Made by a program: the position numbers and the translations under genes. The notes under the pieces were generated by a model. It was not told the DNA's origin, searched no databases, and saw only the letters and a list, made by a program, of their open reading frames with translations. A stretch of DNA of 15,331 nucleotides from a virus (Duplodnaviria > Heunggongvirae > Uroviricota > Caudoviricetes): IMG/VR virus record IMGVR_UViG_2648501437_000028. The stretch is one strand, 5' to 3'. Shown here in pieces: positions 186-15,331 of this stretch; the stretch's first letter is position 1, and each line of letters begins with the position of its first letter.

Positions 186-233
186 CGCAAAAAGTGCCAA
201 AAATCGCAAAATGACTACACCAGTGACTACACC
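186..233. repeat. Phased A-tracts (CGCAAAAAGT GCCAAAAATC GCAAAAT) followed by tandem TGACTACACC x2 (212-221, 224-233)
   Basis: Read directly from the sequence; A5-6 tracts recur with 10-bp phase (bent-DNA signature), and a 10-bp direct repeat sits ~80 bp inside the inferred junction. Confidence 0.45.
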
Positions 234-251
234 GTTCGGTGCACTGTATGA

Positions 252-276
252 AACAACGTGGAACAAATAGACACAA
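252..276. promoter_or_regulatory. AACAA repeats phased at 10 bp (AACAACGTGG AACAAATAGA CACAA); the 15-mer AACAACGTGGAACAA is identical to 7715-7729
   Basis: Read directly; the same motif family recurs at 7713-7742 and, reverse-complemented, at 14021-14070. Confidence 0.45.
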
Positions 277-7499: not shown

Positions 7500-7712
7500 A
7501 AAAAAAGTCCTGGGGTTAAGTAAGGAACTCCAGGACGCGGCAAAAACTCAACCGTTTTTCATAAGGAAATCAGCAATCGCACCGATCGTTTTCCCGCCTG
7601 GTAATGAATATTGGCGAGAACATTAACAGGCGGAAAAGTGGCCCCAGCGTCCTGGCACCACGGGCGAGAATAATCATGATTCAGTTCGGGTAAAATATGC
7701 CGATCCGCTCAG

Positions 7713-7742
7713 TGAACAACGTGGAACAACCACGAACAAATA
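7713..7742. promoter_or_regulatory. Three 10-bp units GAACAACGTG GAACAACCAC GAACAAATAA upstream of the capsid operon
   Basis: Read directly; shares the 15-mer with 252-266; lies between the terminator after the PerC-like gene and the capsid leader. Confidence 0.45.
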
Positions 7743-7761
7743 ATTTACAAAACATGACAAA

Positions 7762-8757: not shown

Positions 8758-8804
8758 ATTTATTTTTACCCCCTCGTTTAAAAAGTTTTGAGTTGTGCCT
8801 CCCC

Positions 8805-9030
8805 TTGTCTACCTTATCTACCTTAGTGGCCCTCATACCAGTAATGGCGCGGCTTTCAGCGGGGTAGAGTGCTTTTATCCACTATCTACCCCGTGTCTAC
8901 CTCCCTGTCTGATTCAGGTAAAATCAGGTAGAGAGGGTAGATAGTGGGTAGACAGTAAAAAAAGGTTATCTACCTAACTTAATGCACTGAATTAAATGTA
9001 TTTTTCTTTACTCAGGTAGACAGGGTAGAC
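8805..9030. repeat. Iteron array (about 12 copies of GGTAGAC/GTCTACC-type 7-8-mers in both orientations) with flanking AT-rich stretches; putative replication origin
   Basis: GTCTACC 8805, TATCTACC 8813, GGTAGAG 8861, TATCTACC 8881, GTCTACC 8893, CAGGTAGA 8923, GGGTAGAT 8933, GGGTAGACAG 8944, TTATCTACC 8964, CAGGTAGACAGGGTAGACAG 9011-9030; lies immediately 3' of the primase gene. Confidence 0.6.
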
Positions 9031-9045
9031 AGCAATTACAAAAAA

Positions 9046-11918: not shown

Positions 11919-12351
11919 GGTGCACCTCCTGCACATCAGCCATGATAATTTTTCCGGCCTTATCCAGTGCCTGATCGGCTTTTAGCTGCACAAATGCTAA
12001 ATGGAAGATGCATTCTGATTCTCTGGCTGCGTGTTTATGCGCCCTGTCAGCAATAACAGAAATATCAATAAGCGCGTGCATCAGCGTAGTGAGCGCGGCG
12101 GCGGCTGCGTCCGGTGTGGTTTTATTGCACATGTACCCCTCCGCATTTTTTTCGTTAGAAATAAGCGTTCTTCTTTCCTGTTCATCGCTCAGGAATACGC
12201 AGACCTCACCGCTAAGGCGTTTAAGTAAGCCGATGATTGCCCCTGATTCGCTGTCGGTCATCATGCTAGGGTAATCCTCTGCCAGTGCGCAAATAACTTC
12301 GATTTGGTGGGCGCGTTCTGCTGCCTGTTGTAGTGTGATTTCCTGGCTCAT
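11911..12351 (-). CDS. Hypothetical 146-aa protein
   Basis: ORF track; ATGA overlap with the upstream 66-aa ORF. Confidence 0.5.
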   Translation of the reverse strand: MSQEITLQQAAERAHQIEVICALAEDYPSMMTDSESGAIIGLLKRLSGEVCVFLSDEQERRTLISNEKNAEGYMCNKTTPDAAAAALTTLMHALIDISVIADRAHKHAARESECIFHLAFVQLKADQALDKAGKIIMADVQEVHHA

Positions 12352-12548
12352 AAGCCTACCCCCTGACGAATACGGGCAGCAAATACCATCACGCAGCCAG
12401 CCGGAGATTGCTGGCGTGCTTCCTGTTCGCTGGTGGCCTCAATGGTAATCACGCGCGGTTGTGCCGTGCTCAGGGCGATAAAACGCCAGATGTATTTATT
12501 CAGGTTGTGCGAGTCCCGCCCTTGCGGGTGTGTGGTATGATTTCTCAT
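12348..12548 (-). CDS. Hypothetical 66-aa protein, first gene of the leftward operon
   Basis: ATG at 12548 preceded by GAGGTAG; it is the 3' part of the 384-aa track ORF, whose upstream extension I reject. Confidence 0.45.
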   Translation of the reverse strand: MRNHTTHPQGRDSHNLNKYIWRFIALSTAQPRVITIEATSEQEARQQSPAGCVMVFAARIRQGVGL

Positions 12549-12583
12549 AGCTACCTCGATACTCTCGTTATCGTTGGTGGTTA

Positions 12584-12724
12584 GAAGCCCCGTTACTGCT
12601 CCAACAGTGCGGGGCTTCGTCGTTTCAATTGCTGAATTGCATGTATCAGCACTTGTGGTATTCACATTACATTTAGGTGAATACCATTTCAAGTCTTTTT
12701 TGGTATTCACTTTTGTATTACACT
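12584..12724. promoter_or_regulatory. Divergent control region: long hairpin GAAGCCCCG...CGGGGCTTC (12584-12618) and operator-like repeats TGGTATTCAC-N11-GTGAATACCA (12656-12686), TGGTATTCAC (12701-12710), GTATTACAC (12715-12723)
   Basis: Read directly; lies between the start of the leftward operon (12548) and the start of the RHH gene (12754). Confidence 0.5.
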
Positions 12725-12753
12725 GCATCCCGTTATTAATGGGAGGTGCAAAC

Positions 12754-13059
12754 ATGTCCAGGAGTTCTGTTAACAATAAGTCACAGCAACTGAATGCCAG
12801 ATTTCCACATGAAGTAGTGAGTGGCATTGAGGCATCCCTACAGTCAGGGGAAACTAAAGCGAATTTTATAGTTACGGCTGTACGCGGTGAGATCGCCCGG
12901 CGCCAGGCAGAAGGAAGTGGAGAAAATCCCCTGGTTTCTTCGCTCGATGCACTGGCGCAGGTGGAAAAACTCGGAATCAAAGCCGCCGAGGAGATCGGGC
13001 AGCTCGTCACTGTCGCACGTGAAGAACTCCAGCGCCGCAAGACCAAAGAACCAGAGTAA
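12754..13059 (+). CDS. Ribbon-helix-helix (CopG/Arc/MetJ-like) DNA-binding protein; candidate repressor of the switch
   Basis: 101 aa from the ATG at 12754 (GGGAGGTG Shine-Dalgarno); N-terminal NARFPHEVVSGIEASLQSGETKANFIVTAVRGEIARR fits a beta-strand/helix/helix pattern; the track ORF starts further upstream at 12574. Confidence 0.55.
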   Translation: MSRSSVNNKSQQLNARFPHEVVSGIEASLQSGETKANFIVTAVRGEIARRQAEGSGENPLVSSLDALAQVEKLGIKAAEEIGQLVTVAREELQRRKTKEPE

Positions 13060-13116
13060 TCACCATCAGCGCCGTGGTGTAAGGTATTACGGCGCATTGC
13101 TATGCAGGACAACACA

Positions 13117-13290
13117 ATGACCGATAAAGAATTGACCAAAACATTATCACCGGCACGGAAAAGACGGCGCAGAAAGATAGAGCATGAATCAGAAAGATTC
13201 GCGCCATGTGCTTTTGCCCTTGAGCAATTCCTTAAAGAGTACAGGGAAAAGCGCTCATTGCAGGTATGGCAACGAACTGAACCAGACTGA
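13117..13290 (+). CDS. Small, highly basic 57-aa protein
   Basis: ATG at 13117 with AGGAC upstream (track ORF starts at 13102); contains the RKRRRRK run; function unknown. Confidence 0.4.
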   Translation: MTDKELTKTLSPARKRRRRKIEHESERFAPCAFALEQFLKEYREKRSLQVWQRTEPD

Positions 13291-13385
13291 TTGCATTGCC
13301 CACCAGCCTGATAACGGCTATCATCCCCGTGCTTATGTTTGGGATCACACACACAAACGGCGCAGCGGGTTATCTGTTCAGAAAG

Positions 13386-13413
13386 GCGGCTCCATTTCGG
13401 GGCCGCTTTTTTT
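13386..13413 (+). terminator. Intrinsic terminator, possibly bidirectional, between the convergent plus-strand pair and alpA
   Basis: GCGGCTCC-ATTTC-GGGGCCGC stem (one G-U pair) followed by TTTTTTT on the plus strand; A-run on the other side. Confidence 0.6.
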
Positions 13414-13559
13414 ATACCTGAAAAACCCCAATTTTGTTGTTTTTCAGTTTCACCAGGGCGAACGAATCCCCGCCCACGTTCTGGCGTATATTCAATCTTC
13501 ATGGTTATAGCTCTGTGTTCAGATGATTGATGTGTGGCGGCTGCGTGCCGCCAGCGTGA

Positions 13560-13748
13560 TTAATGAACTGCCTTGCAGCTATCCTTCCAGGCCAGAACCT
13601 CGGATAAAGACCAGCCAACGGAACGACCGCCAAGTTTACGACGTGATGGGAATTGTCCGGCCTTTTCCAGGCGGTAGCGACACGTACGGCTAAGGCCGGT
13701 TAGTTTTTCGCATTCTTTTTCACGTATAAACCGATCAGTGCTTAACAC
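13560..13748 (-). CDS. alpA: AlpA/Vis-family (excisionase-like) regulator
   Basis: LTGLSRTCRYRLEKAGQFPSRRKLGGRSVGWSLSEVLAWK matches the AlpA-type winged-HTH pattern. I prefer the GTG start at 13748 (AGGGGGG 5 nt upstream, ~62 aa) over the track TTG start at 13829. Confidence 0.7.
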   Translation of the reverse strand: MLSTDRFIREKECEKLTGLSRTCRYRLEKAGQFPSRRKLGGRSVGWSLSEVLAWKDSCKAVH

Positions 13749-14020
13749 TATTGCCCCCCTTTCGTTTCTTAAAGAGTCATCAGGTGTCTTATTGTGTCGT
13801 ATTGTTCCCGCTAGAGTGATGAATGGCAAATACTGAGGATGTATGATTTACAGAAAATGAAACAGTAAGAATAAAATCTTTTAAATTCATGTTAATACAA
13901 AGGCATAAAATATTGTTCCATGCCTTTTTTCTCGCTCTTTAAAGAGTGATTCGCTAGTGTACAAAAAACCAGTAACACATTAAAAATCAGCTACTTATAA
14001 ATCCGTACGCTTTTTCGCCT

Positions 14021-14070
14021 CTTGTTCGTAGTTGTTCCACATTGTTGCTCATTGTTGCACGTTGTATCTG
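14021..14070. promoter_or_regulatory. Five TTGTT-containing 10-bp units in tandem (CTTGTTCGTA GTTGTTCCAC ATTGTTGCTC ATTGTTGCAC GTTGTATCTG)
   Basis: Read directly; TTGTTCCAC is the reverse complement of the GTGGAACAA core at 258-266 and 7721-7729; located in the int-alpA intergenic region. Confidence 0.5.
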
Positions 14071-14080
14071 TTCGCATATC

Positions 14081-14096
14081 CAGTATGCGCATACTG
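14081..14096. promoter_or_regulatory. Perfect 16-bp palindrome CAGTATGCGCATACTG just 3' of the int stop
   Basis: Read directly; no T-tract on the side that would make it an int terminator, so more likely a protein-binding site. Confidence 0.35.
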
Positions 14097-14113
14097 AAAA
14101 AACACGAAAAAAA

Positions 14114-15331
14114 TTATTTTCTTCTGGCTACGGGTAGCGTGGTTACGTTTTCATGTGTTCCCGCCAGTATCCCTAACCGCTCCGTCCACATATCCAGCGC
14201 ATTGCGTTTCGCATCCAGATAACGGGAATGATTATAAACTCGCTGCATTCCTGGCATCTGGTGGCCTGTAAGCTGCTCCACGACATGCGGATCAACGCCT
14301 AAATCGTTCAGCATGGTTGTAAAGGTGCGCCGGATGTCATGCAGTGACCAGTGAGGGTGATTAAGCCTCCTGTGCGCTAATCTTCCATACTGCGATACGC
14401 TGGCCTCCTGTTTCACTTCCCCCAGCAATAAGCCCGTGTGCCTGTTCTGCTCCACCAGCTGCGTGACGAACGGCAGGATCGCTTCCGGTATGGGCCGGAA
14501 TATTGCGACCTTCGTTTTGCTGTGCTCCTTCGGAACGGTCCATAGCATTTCCGTAAAATCCCACTCCCCGATCTCCGATAACCTCAGTTCTACCGTTCTG
14601 GCTCCGAAGACAATCAGGAGGCGGATTAACGCGACGTAGTAAGGGGAGAATATTTTTTTGTCCAGTGCCTGCAATAATTCGCCAAGTTCTTTGTTACTTA
14701 AGACACGTTCGCTTATATCCGGTTTTTTCCCAACGTCCGCAACGTTCAGATCGTCCAGAACGTTGCTGATTGCATAGCGCCGCCTACGGCAGAACTTAAG
14801 CGCCTGTTTGCACGCCTGTAGCACGAATCCGGCAGTAACAGGCGTTCGCTTTGCCACCTGGTCAAAACAGGCCAGCCAGTGCCGTAGCTCGCATTTATCC
14901 AGCGGCATAGCACCAATCTGCTGTATTACGTGATTATTAAGTCGCCTTTTCAGGGCGATATAATCCACGCGGTTTTCCTTTACGTAATACTCAAGCCAGT
15001 AGGTGAGCGCATCGCCAACCGTTACGGGCTTTAACGCTTCCTGTACGGTGTAATTCATCTCATGACGTGGATTTTTCCCCTCAGCCAGCCATGTGCGACA
15101 CTGTGCGGCTTTTTCCCTGGCTGCTTTCAGGCTCAGATCAGGATAACTTCCCAGCTTAATGCGTTCGGGTCGTGTCTCCCTTCCCGTTCCGGCCCTGTAT
15201 GTGAAATACCAGGTCAATTTCCCTGATGTTAAATATTTCACGCTCAGGTTTCCGCCATCACTATAAAACGTGTTTTTCTCCGCTGGCTTACCATGAAGTT
15301 TCCTTAGCAAGGTATCGCTCAGTTTGTTCAT
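14114..15331 (-). CDS. int: Tyrosine integrase (P4-like phage integrase family)
   Basis: 405 aa; C-terminal catalytic signature HDIRRT ... H ... RVYNHSRY (R, H-x-x-R, Tyr nucleophile); ATG is exactly at the window end. Confidence 0.9.
   Translation of the reverse strand: MNKLSDTLLRKLHGKPAEKNTFYSDGGNLSVKYLTSGKLTWYFTYRAGTGRETRPERIKLGSYPDLSLKAAREKAAQCRTWLAEGKNPRHEMNYTVQEALKPVTVGDALTYWLEYYVKENRVDYIALKRRLNNHVIQQIGAMPLDKCELRHWLACFDQVAKRTPVTAGFVLQACKQALKFCRRRRYAISNVLDDLNVADVGKKPDISERVLSNKELGELLQALDKKIFSPYYVALIRLLIVFGARTVELRLSEIGEWDFTEMLWTVPKEHSKTKVAIFRPIPEAILPFVTQLVEQNRHTGLLLGEVKQEASVSQYGRLAHRRLNHPHWSLHDIRRTFTTMLNDLGVDPHVVEQLTGHQMPGMQRVYNHSRYLDAKRNALDMWTERLGILAGTHENVTTLPVARRK

Follow-up and report, generated by a model that had tools for sequence, protein, structure and literature searches.

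In Gram-negative phage-inducible chromosomal islands (PICIs), AlpA acts as the master switch; its role, as excisionase, activator or both, is disputed in the field. In EcCICFT073, AlpA activates its own promoter, PalpA, overexpression of AlpA leads to excision and replication of the island, the activity of Pint is left unchanged by AlpA, and induction was shown by experiment to be helper-dependent and SOS-independent (Fillol-Salom et al. 2018, PMC6092414). That study did not define where AlpA binds or where transcription starts and terminates, and we found no definition of the DNA target of AlpA in the literature that we searched.

Small proteins that act both as recombination directionality factor (RDF) and as regulator are familiar from other elements. 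Apl of phage 186 and Cox of P2 bind direct repeats that are 10-11 bp apart and come in runs of 3-7, with one recognition sequence serving att as well as promoters elsewhere (PMC7498355). P4 has an AlpA-family protein, Vis (ORF88), whose gene is the first in its operon and has three 10-bp phased repeats upstream. RdfS of ICEMlSymR7A binds its own promoter and, in attP, 40 bp that lie immediately upstream of an Int arm site (PMC11963761). In HE-PICIs, a tandem 12-bp motif occurs once per att arm, co-oriented, 81 and 132 bp from the core; the authors left undecided whether Int or AlpA is the binder and reported no phased TTGT arrays (PMC10111431).

The DNA analysed here (the window, 15,331 nucleotides) is, judging from its sequence, a capsid-forming PICI of the EcCIEDL933/EcCICFT073 type inserted in tqsA. 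Its genes run in the order int-alpA-primase in one direction over ~15 kb (L001 annotation, Pfam scans), and it carries its own capsid, portal, protease and terminase genes, no tail genes, and att repeats at its flanks, a content that agrees with the published description of EcCIEDL933 (bioRxiv 10.1101/2022.09.08.507074). Gene calls were taken from the RefSeq annotation of an identical locus, L001. An EDL933-type island, L009, matches the window stretch at 78%; the EcCICFT073 spacer between int and alpA is nearly the same as that of L009, and the Int and AlpA protein accessions of EcCICFT073 are those of L009. The two genes that frame the region under study are:

14114..15331, minus strand: int, P4-family tyrosine integrase with an N-terminal arm-DNA-binding domain (Pfam and RefSeq annotation of L001)
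13560..13748, minus strand: alpA, 62-aa winged-helix excisionase/regulator (Pfam, PHROG, AlphaFold)

The int product matches Arm-DNA-bind_3 (1.4e-18) and Phage_integrase (2.9e-16), and the annotated int start lies 12 nt past the end of the window. The alpA gene, the first of a long island operon in the L001 annotation, starts at GTG 13748, which is preceded by a GGGGGG Shine-Dalgarno sequence at 13754-13759 (RefSeq, identical locus), and not at TTG 13829. An earlier, sequence-only reading had set the control region at 13830-14113; with the GTG start the true spacer is 13749-14113 (365 bp), so that the motif copies which that reading had reported at 13769 and 13801 fall inside it. Besides the true alpA start, that reading had missed the int-alpA hairpin and the repeat copies in the att arms and at the capsid operon. 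Among 5426 complete E. coli genomes, 877 carry a match to the spacer-alpA stretch. Comparison of the spacer with 50,697 phage records (blastn) gave no match, suggesting no obvious promoter mimicry of a helper, and the spacer of another PICI, EcCIMP1, likewise matched none of the phage records. An Rfam scan of 13500-14300 at permissive E-values returned noise only. A 33-codon open reading frame in the spacer, from ATG 13891, was rejected: its start is lost in GF60 and it has no Shine-Dalgarno sequence.

The most conspicuous elements of the spacer are 10-bp repeats, and related arrays were found elsewhere in the island:

14022..14071, plus strand: distal putative operator array, five head-to-tail 10-bp units TTGTTCGTAG/TTGTTCCACA/TTGTTGCTCA/TTGTTGCACG/TTGTATCTGT, candidate AlpA sites
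13792..13811, plus strand: proximal putative operator units TTGTGTCGTA/TTGTTCCCGC, in the orientation of the distal array
247..276, minus strand: attR-arm array TTGTGTCTAT/TTGTTCCACG/TTGTTTCATA, kept in islands at three att sites
7710..7750, minus strand: third array copy TTGTTCGTGG/TTGTTCCACG/TTGTTCACTG plus TTGTAAATTAT, upstream of the capsid gene

The distal units begin with TTGT at 14022, 14032, 14042, 14052 and 14062, exactly 10 bp apart, which bears out the phasing claimed for five TTGTT units; only four of them are TTGTT, however, the fifth being TTGTA. The consensus of the unit family is TTGTTCCACG. Sites of the form TTGT-N6-TTGT-N6-TTGT are all within the island: in the int-alpA spacer, in the attL and attR arms, and ahead of the capsid operon, with three to four units at each location outside the spacer. 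In attL, whose arm is at L001 17860-17960, the array is 40 bp long and lies directly upstream of the arm sites. The array at 7710..7750 is flanked by the perC terminator on one side and, on the other, by a late-promoter-like TTTACC-16-TATTCT before the capsid gene; it is identical in L009 and absent from classical PICIs. The window contains 5 matches to a run of at least three phased TTGT units, where 200 shuffles gave 0.00, and none were found in ~17 kb of flanking chromosome or in 50 kb of CFT073 prophage. A scan of IMG/VR with TTGTT-N5-TTGTT-N5-TTGTT was uninformative, as it returned more than 100 unrelated AT-rich contigs.

The arrays are also conserved. Among 8 relatives, conservation is 95-100% at the TTGT cores but 68-82% at the positions between them, as measured over islands that are 77-100% identical. 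The distal array has 6-7 units in EcCICFT073/EDL933-type islands, and in relatives the proximal site retains two to three phased (G)ACACAA units. TTGTGTC, from this site, recurs as the first unit in the attR array. Three or four of the array locations are common to islands with three att sites and three replication modules. By analogy with the alpha-binding TGTTCACC of P4, the repeats might be origin iterons for the island primase/helicase, a reading that we consider extremely improbable. TTGTTCC has a superficial resemblance to the type 1 repeat of P4, which reads TGTTCACC there, but the TTGT arrays are unchanged whether the island has a D5-type primase, a RepA helicase or a DUF927 primase, and the island has a separate cluster, different from the TTGT units, just after its primase gene:

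8760..9040, no strand assigned: replication-origin-like iterons (GTCTACC / GGTAGAC) that follow the D5-type primase gene (sequence, Pfam)

Most likely, the TTGT units are docking sites of the island's own AlpA. Several lines point to this reading: phased TTGT is found only within the island, its cores are conserved, AlpA has an excisionase fold, and the layout is that of dual-function RDFs. AlpA matches Pfam Phage_AlpA (5.4e-17) and the PHROG 'excisionase and transcriptional regulator' (2.5e-17). Its AlphaFold model (pLDDT 86) has the GIsul2 excisionase 8c3t as top PDB match (TM 0.83-0.90), and RdfS (8dgl), Pukovnik Xis and TorI are the other best matches. Across the array-bearing islands sampled, AlpA is 90-97% identical, which is too little variation for a test of covariation between motif and protein; the sample of AlpA homologues comprised 19 proteins at 10 genomic loci, and the more distant loci differ in architecture. 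We rejected identity with the antiterminator AlpA of P. aeruginosa, since the island protein has 62 aa and an excisionase fold; that both bear the name AlpA is coincidental. The protein from P. aeruginosa is Q21-like and larger, with a different fold (helices H1-H8): its N-terminal segment forms a ring within the RNA exit channel, and its C-terminal HTH has DNA-contact residues up to position 142 (PMC9371919).

Next to the arrays in both att arms is a second, distinct motif, which was mapped in the attR arm as follows:

211..233, minus strand: doubled 12-bp motif GGTGTAGTCACT GGTGTAGTCAT, putative Int arm-type sites of the attR arm
129-137: att core ATAACAGCA

Exact copies of the doubled GGTGTAGTCACT occur in the two att arms only, and the arrays abut the doubled motif in attL and attR, as they do in islands at three att sites. 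The motif has a CAC and a TAA variant, and the variant tracks the type of the Int N-terminal domain in 8/8 islands, independently of the AlpA variant. The sequences thus argue for the doubled motif as the arm-type sites of the integrase and, because it tracks the Int arm-binding domain even in recombinants that part it from the AlpA variants, leave the TTGT arrays for the RDF. There is only a slight chance that the arrays are instead bound by the Int arm-binding domain, as extra arm sites and for autoregulation. The arrays do lie in both att arms and adjoin int, distant relatives (AlpA 60-67% identical) keep TTGTTCA pairs in the attL arm with no array upstream of alpA, and lambda arm-type sites may also be adjacent direct repeats. 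It is, however, the doubled GGTGTAGT(CAC/TAA)T, and not the TTGT unit, that co-varies with the Int N-terminal domain in both arms and has the architecture annotated as arm repeats in P4; the TTGT units are constant across both Int N-terminal types, and an array before the capsid operon would be of no obvious use to Int. The idea that integrase acts in the spacer was likewise not borne out, as we found no arm site there. Of the proposal that the spacer is a compound site for several proteins, the composite control region holds, as do, at the level of sequence, the properties of an AlpA operator; integrase binding and SOS control were not supported.

The array layout is the one known from dual-function RDFs (186 Apl, P2 Cox, P4 Vis and RdfS), a familiar design. 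The spacing of the direct repeats and the use of one sequence at att and away from it are like those of Apl and Cox. Unlike PICI AlpA, which is reported to activate its own promoter, Apl and Cox repress face-to-face lytic and lysogenic promoters; the island array lies ~200 bp upstream, behind a hairpin, with no immunity repressor in the region, and AlpA belongs to Pfam Phage_AlpA, not to the Cox/Apl family. The island and P4 have integrases from one family, a doubled 12-bp arm repeat in each att arm and an Icd-like gene downstream. It differs from P4 in that int and alpA are adjacent, whereas int and vis are far apart; in that the repeats near vis are annotated as ori type 2 (cox-box-like, TGGCTTTAA), whereas the island unit is TTGTTCCACG; and in that its helpers are lambdoid and not P2-like. 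The position of the RdfS site in attP relative to the arm site is that of the attL array, which supports the arrays as AlpA operators, and the RdfS fold resembles the AlpA model. Nonetheless, RdfS shows negative autoregulation, activates PintS, has an extra N-terminal helix, oligomerises without DNA and has no simple repeat consensus defined (PMC11963761). The HE-PICI motif resembles the doubled motif also in its distances, which are roughly 80 and 140 bp in L001, but the att cores differ (TGTATTGC against TGTAGTCA/TGTAGTTA). Also close is the PalpA region of EcCICFT073, where the homologous spacer has the same array, hairpin and promoter blocks; that lineage, unlike the window, has neither the 16-bp palindrome nor the perfect 12-bp palindrome.

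Between the distal array and alpA lie a hairpin and two promoter-like sequences:

13899..13927, minus strand: hairpin AAAGGCAUGGAA-CAAUA-UUUUAUGCCUUU then GUAUU, conserved
13868..13895, minus strand: promoter-like TTAACA-16-TATTCT just downstream of the hairpin; -10 conserved, -35 not
13801..13829, minus strand: promoter-like TTGCCA-17-AACAAT, best PalpA candidate (promoter scan, alignment, EcCICFT073 sequence)

The hairpin is probably the intrinsic terminator of int, which would insulate alpA. A 66-nt segment with the hairpin folds at -16.8 kcal/mol (z -4.1), and 98.4% of cells are paired over 7 sequence variants in a hand-registered pair count. One stem position follows an AU>GU>GC path. In four pairs the only variation is to G.U, which pairs only in minus-strand RNA; covariation statistics were not significant. 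The tail, UUUGUAUU, is only moderately U-rich. A terminator scan did not call the hairpin, because its criteria pair only the 5-bp GGCAU/AUGCC stem and leave a 13-nt loop. The PalpA candidate keeps in all relatives an invariant -35, a -10 of the form (A/C)ACAAT and a 17-bp spacing, suggesting a weak sigma-70 promoter for alpA; the proximal TTGT units overlie its -10 and its predicted start, which would lie near 13794; an alternative alpA start is predicted near 13861.

Four further blocks complete the spacer:

14081..14096, no strand assigned: 16-bp palindrome CAGTATGCGCATACTG, 17 nt after the int stop, lineage-specific
13956..13973, minus strand: T-rich block ACTGGTTTTTTGTACACT, consensus ACTGKTTTTTTRTACAYT, invariant alignment columns
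13935..13947, minus strand: 12-bp palindrome CTCTTTAAAGAG; first boxA-like ACTCTTTAA of the sense strand, with the hairpin 11 nt further downstream
13769..13777, minus strand: ACTCTTTAA(GAAA) in the alpA leader, just before the Shine-Dalgarno sequence, identical in 8/8 aligned relatives

On the minus strand the spacer would read, in order: int stop, lineage-specific palindrome, five units, T-rich block, boxA-like palindrome, hairpin, weak alpA promoter overlapped by two units, leader element and ribosome-binding site. In the explanation that we favour, and hold to be rather probable, this spacer is the master control region of an EcCIEDL933/EcCICFT073-type PICI, and AlpA, acting as RDF and transcriptional regulator at once, fills the operators in the spacer, in the att arms and at the capsid operon. 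AlpA would bind the units cooperatively, one protomer per helical turn. A helper-phage signal would start alpA transcription; AlpA would then occupy the distal array, where occupancy is expected to be high, giving positive feedback, and would fill the att arrays beside the Int arm sites, directing excision together with Int, as well as the array before the capsid and packaging operon, for control of late genes. At high levels AlpA may fill the two-unit proximal site over the promoter and limit its own synthesis. The steps of autoactivation and helper induction are taken from the homologous EcCICFT073 region (PMC6092414). With one 10-bp unit at the alpA control region, the att arms and the capsid operon, a single hypothesis could account for three roles; the arrays give exact candidate sites, set AlpA sites apart from integrase arm sites, and narrow the possible site of the helper signal to conserved blocks outside the arrays and the promoter.

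Some observations count against the arrays as AlpA operators. One is that the more distant AlpA relatives, at 60-67% identity, have no array upstream of alpA although TTGTTCA pairs persist in their attL arm. The distal array abuts the int promoter region, yet Pint was unchanged by AlpA in EcCICFT073. Units over the -10 would be expected to repress, yet the published effect of AlpA is activation. Direct activation from the distal array is also hard to explain, since it lies ~200-250 bp upstream of the candidate promoter with the terminator hairpin between them. By presence and absence, other small conserved island proteins (YlcI/YnfO-like, Icd-like and DUF4222) may also be binders.

We also considered how a helper might act here. 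That the spacer is the point where helpers switch on Gram-negative PICIs, through cross-occupancy by their excisionases or through antitermination, seems to us a tentative and unlikely proposal; if true, either version would name the helper 'inducer', unknown since 2018. In the first version, which we consider rather unlikely, the array would be a helper sensor, with a Xis/Cox-type excisionase of the helper cross-binding TTGT and switching on alpA. This would be compatible with AlpA binding the same sites, with P2 Cox at the P4 PLL/vis cox boxes as the model. The three phased repeats of P4, of the TGGCTTTAA type, lie ~150 bp upstream of vis, its alpA homologue, and activation of P4 by P2 Cox is cited in PMC7498355, which also describes RDF specificity as relaxed. 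An EcCIMP1 alpA reporter was still helper-induced in an alpA deletion, and AlpA-family excisionases cross-complement the Xis of a helper (PMC11773190). On the other hand, no helper Xis is tied by sequence to the TTGT units, and each of several unrelated helpers (lambda, phi80, HK106, HK446) would have to carry a compatible excisionase. The lambda P arm, with its Xis sites, has only short strings in common with the island motifs, e.g. TGTAGTC and TTGTGT.

In the second version, which we judge to be quite unlikely, a helper antiterminator and Nus factors would act at the boxA-like ACTCTTTAA and allow readthrough of the 13899-13927 hairpin into alpA; the upstream transcripts would come from Pint or a spacer promoter. 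A boxA test (CGCTCTTA / GCTCTTTAA) gave three 8/9 matches, all ACTCTTTAA on the sense strand and within 710 nt, at 13769-13777, 13939-13947 and 13232-13240; one lies before the hairpin and one is the invariant element of the alpA leader. The EcCICFT073 version, CACTCTTAAAAAT, agrees with the lambda nutL boxA, CGCTCTTAAAAAT, at 12/13 positions, and the EcCIMP1 int-alpA spacer has near-exact lambda- and P22-type boxA-boxB upstream of a strong hairpin. The EcCIMP1 spacer carries tandem lambda-, P22- and phi21-like nut modules, which point towards this version. However, in all three matches the first G of boxA is replaced by A, the loop of the hairpin is neither conserved nor GNRA-like, and no lambda- or P22-type boxB (5-bp stem with a GNRNA or P22-type loop) was found anywhere in the window or in four related islands (L009, L010, L011 and EcCICFT073), whereas EcCIMP1 has it. 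Lambda nevertheless induces EcCICFT073, and HK106, with a P22-type boxB, induces EcCIEDL933, despite the missing boxB. A CTGAAAAAGG match inside perC was rejected as boxB, its stem being only 3 bp.

Control by SOS through LexA, at CTG-N10-CAG-like sites at 14066-14085 and 13955-13974, is in our view very improbable. These are the two best matches in the window to a matrix built from E. coli SOS boxes, and both lie in the spacer (14.6 and 14.2 bits), but both fall at the low end of the range seen in training. The first, a weak match that overlaps the 16-bp palindrome, occurs in one lineage only, and the second, in the T-rich block, has CAC or CAT and not CAG in every relative. Reporters of alpA were not induced by mitomycin C without a helper (PMC6092414, PMC11773190), which also speaks against the SOS induction that had been raised for this region. 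Besides the LexA-like left half, the T-rich block includes a -10-like TACAYT. As a site for lambda CII, one TTGC-N6-TTGC inside the array of the window was rejected, since it is not kept in relatives.

Finally, the palindromes. The 16-bp palindrome CAGTATGCGCATACTG at 14081-14096 is present and perfect, as had been noted. The chance of a perfect 16-bp palindrome in 365 bp is ~0.006, and there is one other in the window, at 592-607. It is kept in five relatives that are at least 84% identical; in the EcCICFT073/EDL933/PI7/E21845 lineage an extra ACAAC unit takes its place, and for its absence from the EcCICFT073/EDL933 lineage we place it outside the core mechanism. Its RNA form has a folding energy of -12.1 kcal/mol (z -3.6) and lacks a U-tract. 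The 12-bp palindrome CTCTTTAAAGAG at 13935-13946 is likewise perfect, though perfect ones of this length are no rarity (8 in the window, ~3.7 expected); its dyad symmetry is kept in KY172/E2865 by a compensatory T-A to G-C change. The 'near copy' reported at 13769-13780 proved to be only a half copy, TTAAAGAGTCAT, and what truly recurs is ACTCTTTAA on the minus strand. Copies of ATTGTTCC were found at 13801 and 13912, as the sequence-only reading had stated, and form part of TATTGTTCC 9-mers; the copy at 13912 sits in the loop of the hairpin, where the sequence is not conserved. The string CTCTTTAA occurs 5 times in L001 against 0.62 expected.

The E. coli tqsA gene is the insertion site of the ~15.7-kb island represented by the window. 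According to the annotation of the identical FORC_069 locus and to Pfam, all island genes lie on the - strand in the order int, alpA, Icd-like and small genes, D5-type primase, SSB, perC, major capsid, protease, portal, head completion, HNH, terS and terL, the same architecture as that of the capsid-forming PICI (cf-PICI) EcCIEDL933 (bioRxiv 10.1101/2022.09.08.507074). The spacer plus alpA stretch was matched in 877 of 5426 complete E. coli genomes, with identities of ~77% to 100%. RefSeq starts alpA at GTG 13748, with a GGGGGG Shine-Dalgarno sequence ahead of it; therefore, the int-alpA spacer is 13749-14113 (365 bp, G+C 35% vs 51% for the window), and not 13830-14113, the limits that a sequence-only reading had given to a compound regulatory site. 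Every string listed in that reading was found in the window. The 16-bp and 12-bp palindromes are both perfect, the supposed near copy of the latter at 13769 proved to be only a half copy, and the phased units, the last of which reads TTGTA, have their TTGT starts at 14022, 14032, 14042, 14052 and 14062, a spacing of exactly one helical turn. Three phased TTGT units occurred in none of 200 shuffles of the window. The chance of a perfect 16-bp palindrome within 365 bp is ~0.006; perfect 12-bp palindromes are common in the window (8 observed).

A pattern search of the 32.7-kb locus around the island found TTGT-N6-TTGT-N6-TTGT in just four places, all inside the island.

14022-14071, + strand: TTGT array of the spacer
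247-276, - strand: TTGT array of the attR arm
7710-7750, - strand: TTGT array between the perC terminator and the capsid gene
17901-17934 of the FORC_069 locus (L001), outside the window: TTGT array of the attL arm, just upstream of int

The pattern was absent from the flanking chromosome in this locus and from 50 kb of CFT073 prophage DNA. The unit consensus, from 34 units, is TTGTTCCACG. We compared eight further islands, including EcCICFT073 itself, that cover three att sites (tqsA, roxA/phoQ and abgR/smrA), three replication modules (D5 primase, RepA helicase and DUF927) and late regions of the cf-PICI, fused protease-capsid or classical PICI kind. Each retains TTGT arrays at both att arms and, with 5-7 units, in the spacer; the pre-capsid array is likewise retained in the two cf-PICIs of EDL933 type. 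When the spacers were aligned, identity was 95-100% in the ACAA/TTGT core columns vs 68-82% at the six between-core positions; such conserved cores with drifting positions between them are the signature of selection for repeated protein contact. The arrays are independent of replicon type and a separate GTCTACC/GGTAGAC cluster lies past the primase gene, which excludes a role of the arrays as replication iterons. This cluster of direct and inverted repeats (8760-9040, in a 290-bp gap downstream of the primase gene) is probably the island replication origin.

In the 7660-7750 region, the TTGT array stands immediately past the perC terminator, and ~15 bp further is a late-promoter-like TTTACC-16-TATTCT, whose core AATCATGATTAT also occurs upstream of the EcCICFT073 late region. 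At the pre-capsid position, classical PICIs carry no TTGT array.

In both att arms a doubled 12-bp motif, GGTGTAGTCACT GGTGTAGTCAC/T, comes after the TTGT array; its exact copies are limited to these arms, roughly 80 and 140 bp from the att core ATAACAGCA (129-137).

211-233 of the window: doubled 12-bp motif (GGTGTAGTCACT x2), one att arm
17869-17891 of L001, outside the window: doubled 12-bp motif (GGTGTAGTCACT x2), other att arm, co-oriented with the first

The motif comes as either ...GTCACT or ...GTTAAT, and the version (CAC or TAA) tracks the type of the Int N-terminal, arm-binding domain in both arms of all eight islands. Natural recombinants make this association separable from AlpA: E2865 has exactly the AlpA of the window with a type-2 Int and the TAAT motif, and in KY208 and KY172 the S22 variant of AlpA occurs together with a type-1 Int and the CACT motif. 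P4 likewise has doubled, co-oriented 12-bp "attP arm sequence repeats" in each arm, and helper-embedded PICIs have a doubled arm motif whose binder was left undecided (PMC10111431). Because of this tracking, the recombinants and the shared architecture, we assign the doubled motif to Int as its putative arm-type sites. That the TTGT arrays are themselves Int arm sites is disfavoured, since it is the doubled motif, not the TTGT units, that covaries with Int type.

In the P arm of lambda attP (L149 91-125, ATGTTGTGTTTT...TATGTAGTCTGTT), which we take to be Xis-binding sites, an assignment absent from the record, TGTAGTC is common to the island doubled motif and TTGTGT to the array units; these shared strings may be fortuitous or may hint at cross-recognition. 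Distant AlpA relatives (60-67% identical) come from loci of Kosakonia, Enterobacter, Buttiauxella and Hafnia in which the attL arm, upstream of int, still has TTGTTCA pairs (L013 880-936, L014 700-765, L016 ~638 and L019 ~788). In Kosakonia and Enterobacter the pairs are followed by a doubled GTGTAGTCAGT or GTGCAGTC(T/A)GT motif, and a terminator-like hairpin lies immediately 5' of the alpA start. Several such loci, including those of Enterobacter, Buttiauxella and Hafnia, have int and alpA separated by an additional open frame of ~260-320 codons.

The TTGT arrays are the second att-arm motif, identical with both Int types and present also at two non-att regulatory positions, as expected for sites of a recombination directionality factor (RDF). 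AlpA (62 aa) matches Pfam Phage_AlpA (5e-17) and the PHROG "excisionase and transcriptional regulator", and the nearest PDB structures to its confident model (pLDDT 86) are those of the GIsul2 excisionase (TM 0.83-0.90), RdfS, Pukovnik Xis and TorI. RDF proteins bind head-to-tail on tandem repeats with one-turn spacing, require some three neighbouring operators, and put att-type sites to use again at promoters (PMC7498355). RdfS binds its own promoter and also 40 bp of DNA immediately upstream of an Int arm site (PMC11963761); the attL array of the island is likewise 40 bp and directly upstream of the doubled motif. In EcCICFT073, whose Int and AlpA have the same protein accessions as those of the EDL933-type island L009, AlpA activates PalpA, and its overexpression leads to excision and replication (PMC6092414); the TTGT array is the sole motif common to the PalpA region and the att arms. 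We consider it fairly probable that the phased TTGT units are AlpA operators. A less likely reading is that a helper excisionase acts on the TTGT array, by analogy with P2 Cox, which acts on phased boxes upstream of P4 vis.

Along the direction of transcription, the first of the other spacer elements is the 16-bp palindrome. It is present in the five closest relatives, and in the EcCICFT073/EDL933/PI7/E21845 lineage it is replaced by an 11-bp shorter sequence that gives one more ACAAC unit; the palindrome therefore lies outside the core mechanism. All relatives keep the T-rich block ACTGKTTTTTTRTACAYT (13956-13973), which is LexA-like only by a weak score and has a right half that is never CAG. 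LexA control of the spacer is disfavoured. The dyad of the 12-bp palindrome is preserved through a compensatory change in two relatives and has decayed in the EcCICFT073 lineage. Its sense-strand reading is the 9-mer ACTCTTTAA, an 8/9 match to boxA GCTCTTTAA, with three copies within 710 nt.

13232-13240, - strand: ACTCTTTAA, 530 nt downstream of the leader copy
13769-13777, - strand: ACTCTTTAA in the alpA leader, invariant across all relatives
13939-13947, - strand: ACTCTTTAA in the 12-bp palindrome

Three phased TGGCTTTAA repeats upstream of P4 vis resemble this 9-mer.

The hairpin at 13899-13927 is conserved, with 98.4% of stem positions paired in seven sequence variants; one position changes AU>GU>GC, and four others vary only to G.U, which pairs only in - strand RNA. 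These pairing-preserving changes are only suggestive because the covariation statistics were not significant. With its A-tract and U-tract flanks, the hairpin is most simply read as the int terminator, which would shield alpA from int read-through. A promoter scan gave two promoter-like sites downstream of it. One, TTGCCA-17-(A/C)ACAAT, is a candidate PalpA, with the -35, the spacing and a weak -10 retained by every relative; two proximal TTGT-type units (13792-13811) lie over its -10 and predicted start.

In the mechanism that we propose, a helper-phage signal would lead to AlpA synthesis, and AlpA on the long distal array would give the positive feedback measured in EcCICFT073. AlpA on the att arrays, together with arm-bound Int, would drive excision, and in cf-PICIs AlpA would also occupy the late array. 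At high levels it would fill the short proximal site over its own promoter and limit itself. The weak steps are that the distal array lies 200-250 bp from the candidate PalpA with the hairpin intervening, that units overlying a -10 normally repress, and that Pint is unaffected by AlpA in EcCICFT073.

RDFs reusing att-type operators at promoters are a design well known from 186, P2, P4 and ICEs, and the response of the spacer of the sister island EcCICFT073 to AlpA and helper phage was already known. Three predictions from sequence are new: a concrete operator, defined by its unit, number, phase and four locations; the distinction between this operator and the Int arm sites; and a hairpin between int and alpA.

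The boxA-like elements and the hairpin could also form a helper-responsive antitermination switch. This reading is weak for the present island: boxB of the lambda or P22 type is absent from the window and its relatives, yet EcCICFT073 is induced by lambda and EcCIEDL933 by HK106, which has P22-type nut sites. It is unlikely that the spacer is where a helper inducer acts, through RDF cross-talk or antitermination. The Pseudomonas "AlpA" antiterminator was set aside as an unrelated, larger Q-like protein (PMC9371919).

We also examined EcCIMP1 (helper Kapi1; PMC11773190), chosen for its different AlpA allele. TTGT arrays are absent from its int-alpA spacer, which carries, on the sense strand, three tandem boxA-boxB modules upstream of a strong hairpin and alpA.

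18658-19084 of the EcCIMP1 locus (L150; E. coli MP1, NZ_CP139039), - strand: int-alpA spacer with the nut-like modules

The lambda-type module, GCCCTGGAGAAGGGC, matches lambda nutL GCCCTGAAGAAGGGC at 14/15 positions. The second, GTTCTTTAAC...CGCTGACAAAGCGC, corresponds to P22 nutL GCTCTTTAAC...GCGCTGACAAAGCGC, with the same boxB type as HK106, and the third has a CTAATA-loop hairpin resembling the CTAACC-loop hairpins in Kapi1's own nut regions. The EcCIMP1 paper (PMC11773190) makes no mention of nut-like modules, and our literature search found no paper linking PICIs and nut sites. These tandem modules suggest that at least one PICI family senses helpers via N-type antitermination into alpA, and the comparison shows that "int, control elements, hairpin, alpA" is a common layout with different sensors slotted in. 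The nut-like modules may outweigh the AlpA-operator finding in importance.

Downstream of alpA, a 384-codon open frame (12348-13502, - strand) overlaps + strand YlcI/YnfO-like genes (12880-13290) and two terminator-like hairpins; its PHROG match, "transcriptional repressor" (P4 cI-derived), is limited to the C-terminal 90 residues. RefSeq annotation of this stretch in the near-identical FORC_069 island gives Icd-like genes plus an Icd-like pseudogene, and the stretch may serve in P4-like immunity. The AT-rich accessory region close to the attR end contains a second perfect 16-bp palindrome, GTTGCAGATCTGCAAC (592-607), and the first 610 bp of the window hold four further perfect 12-bp palindromes.
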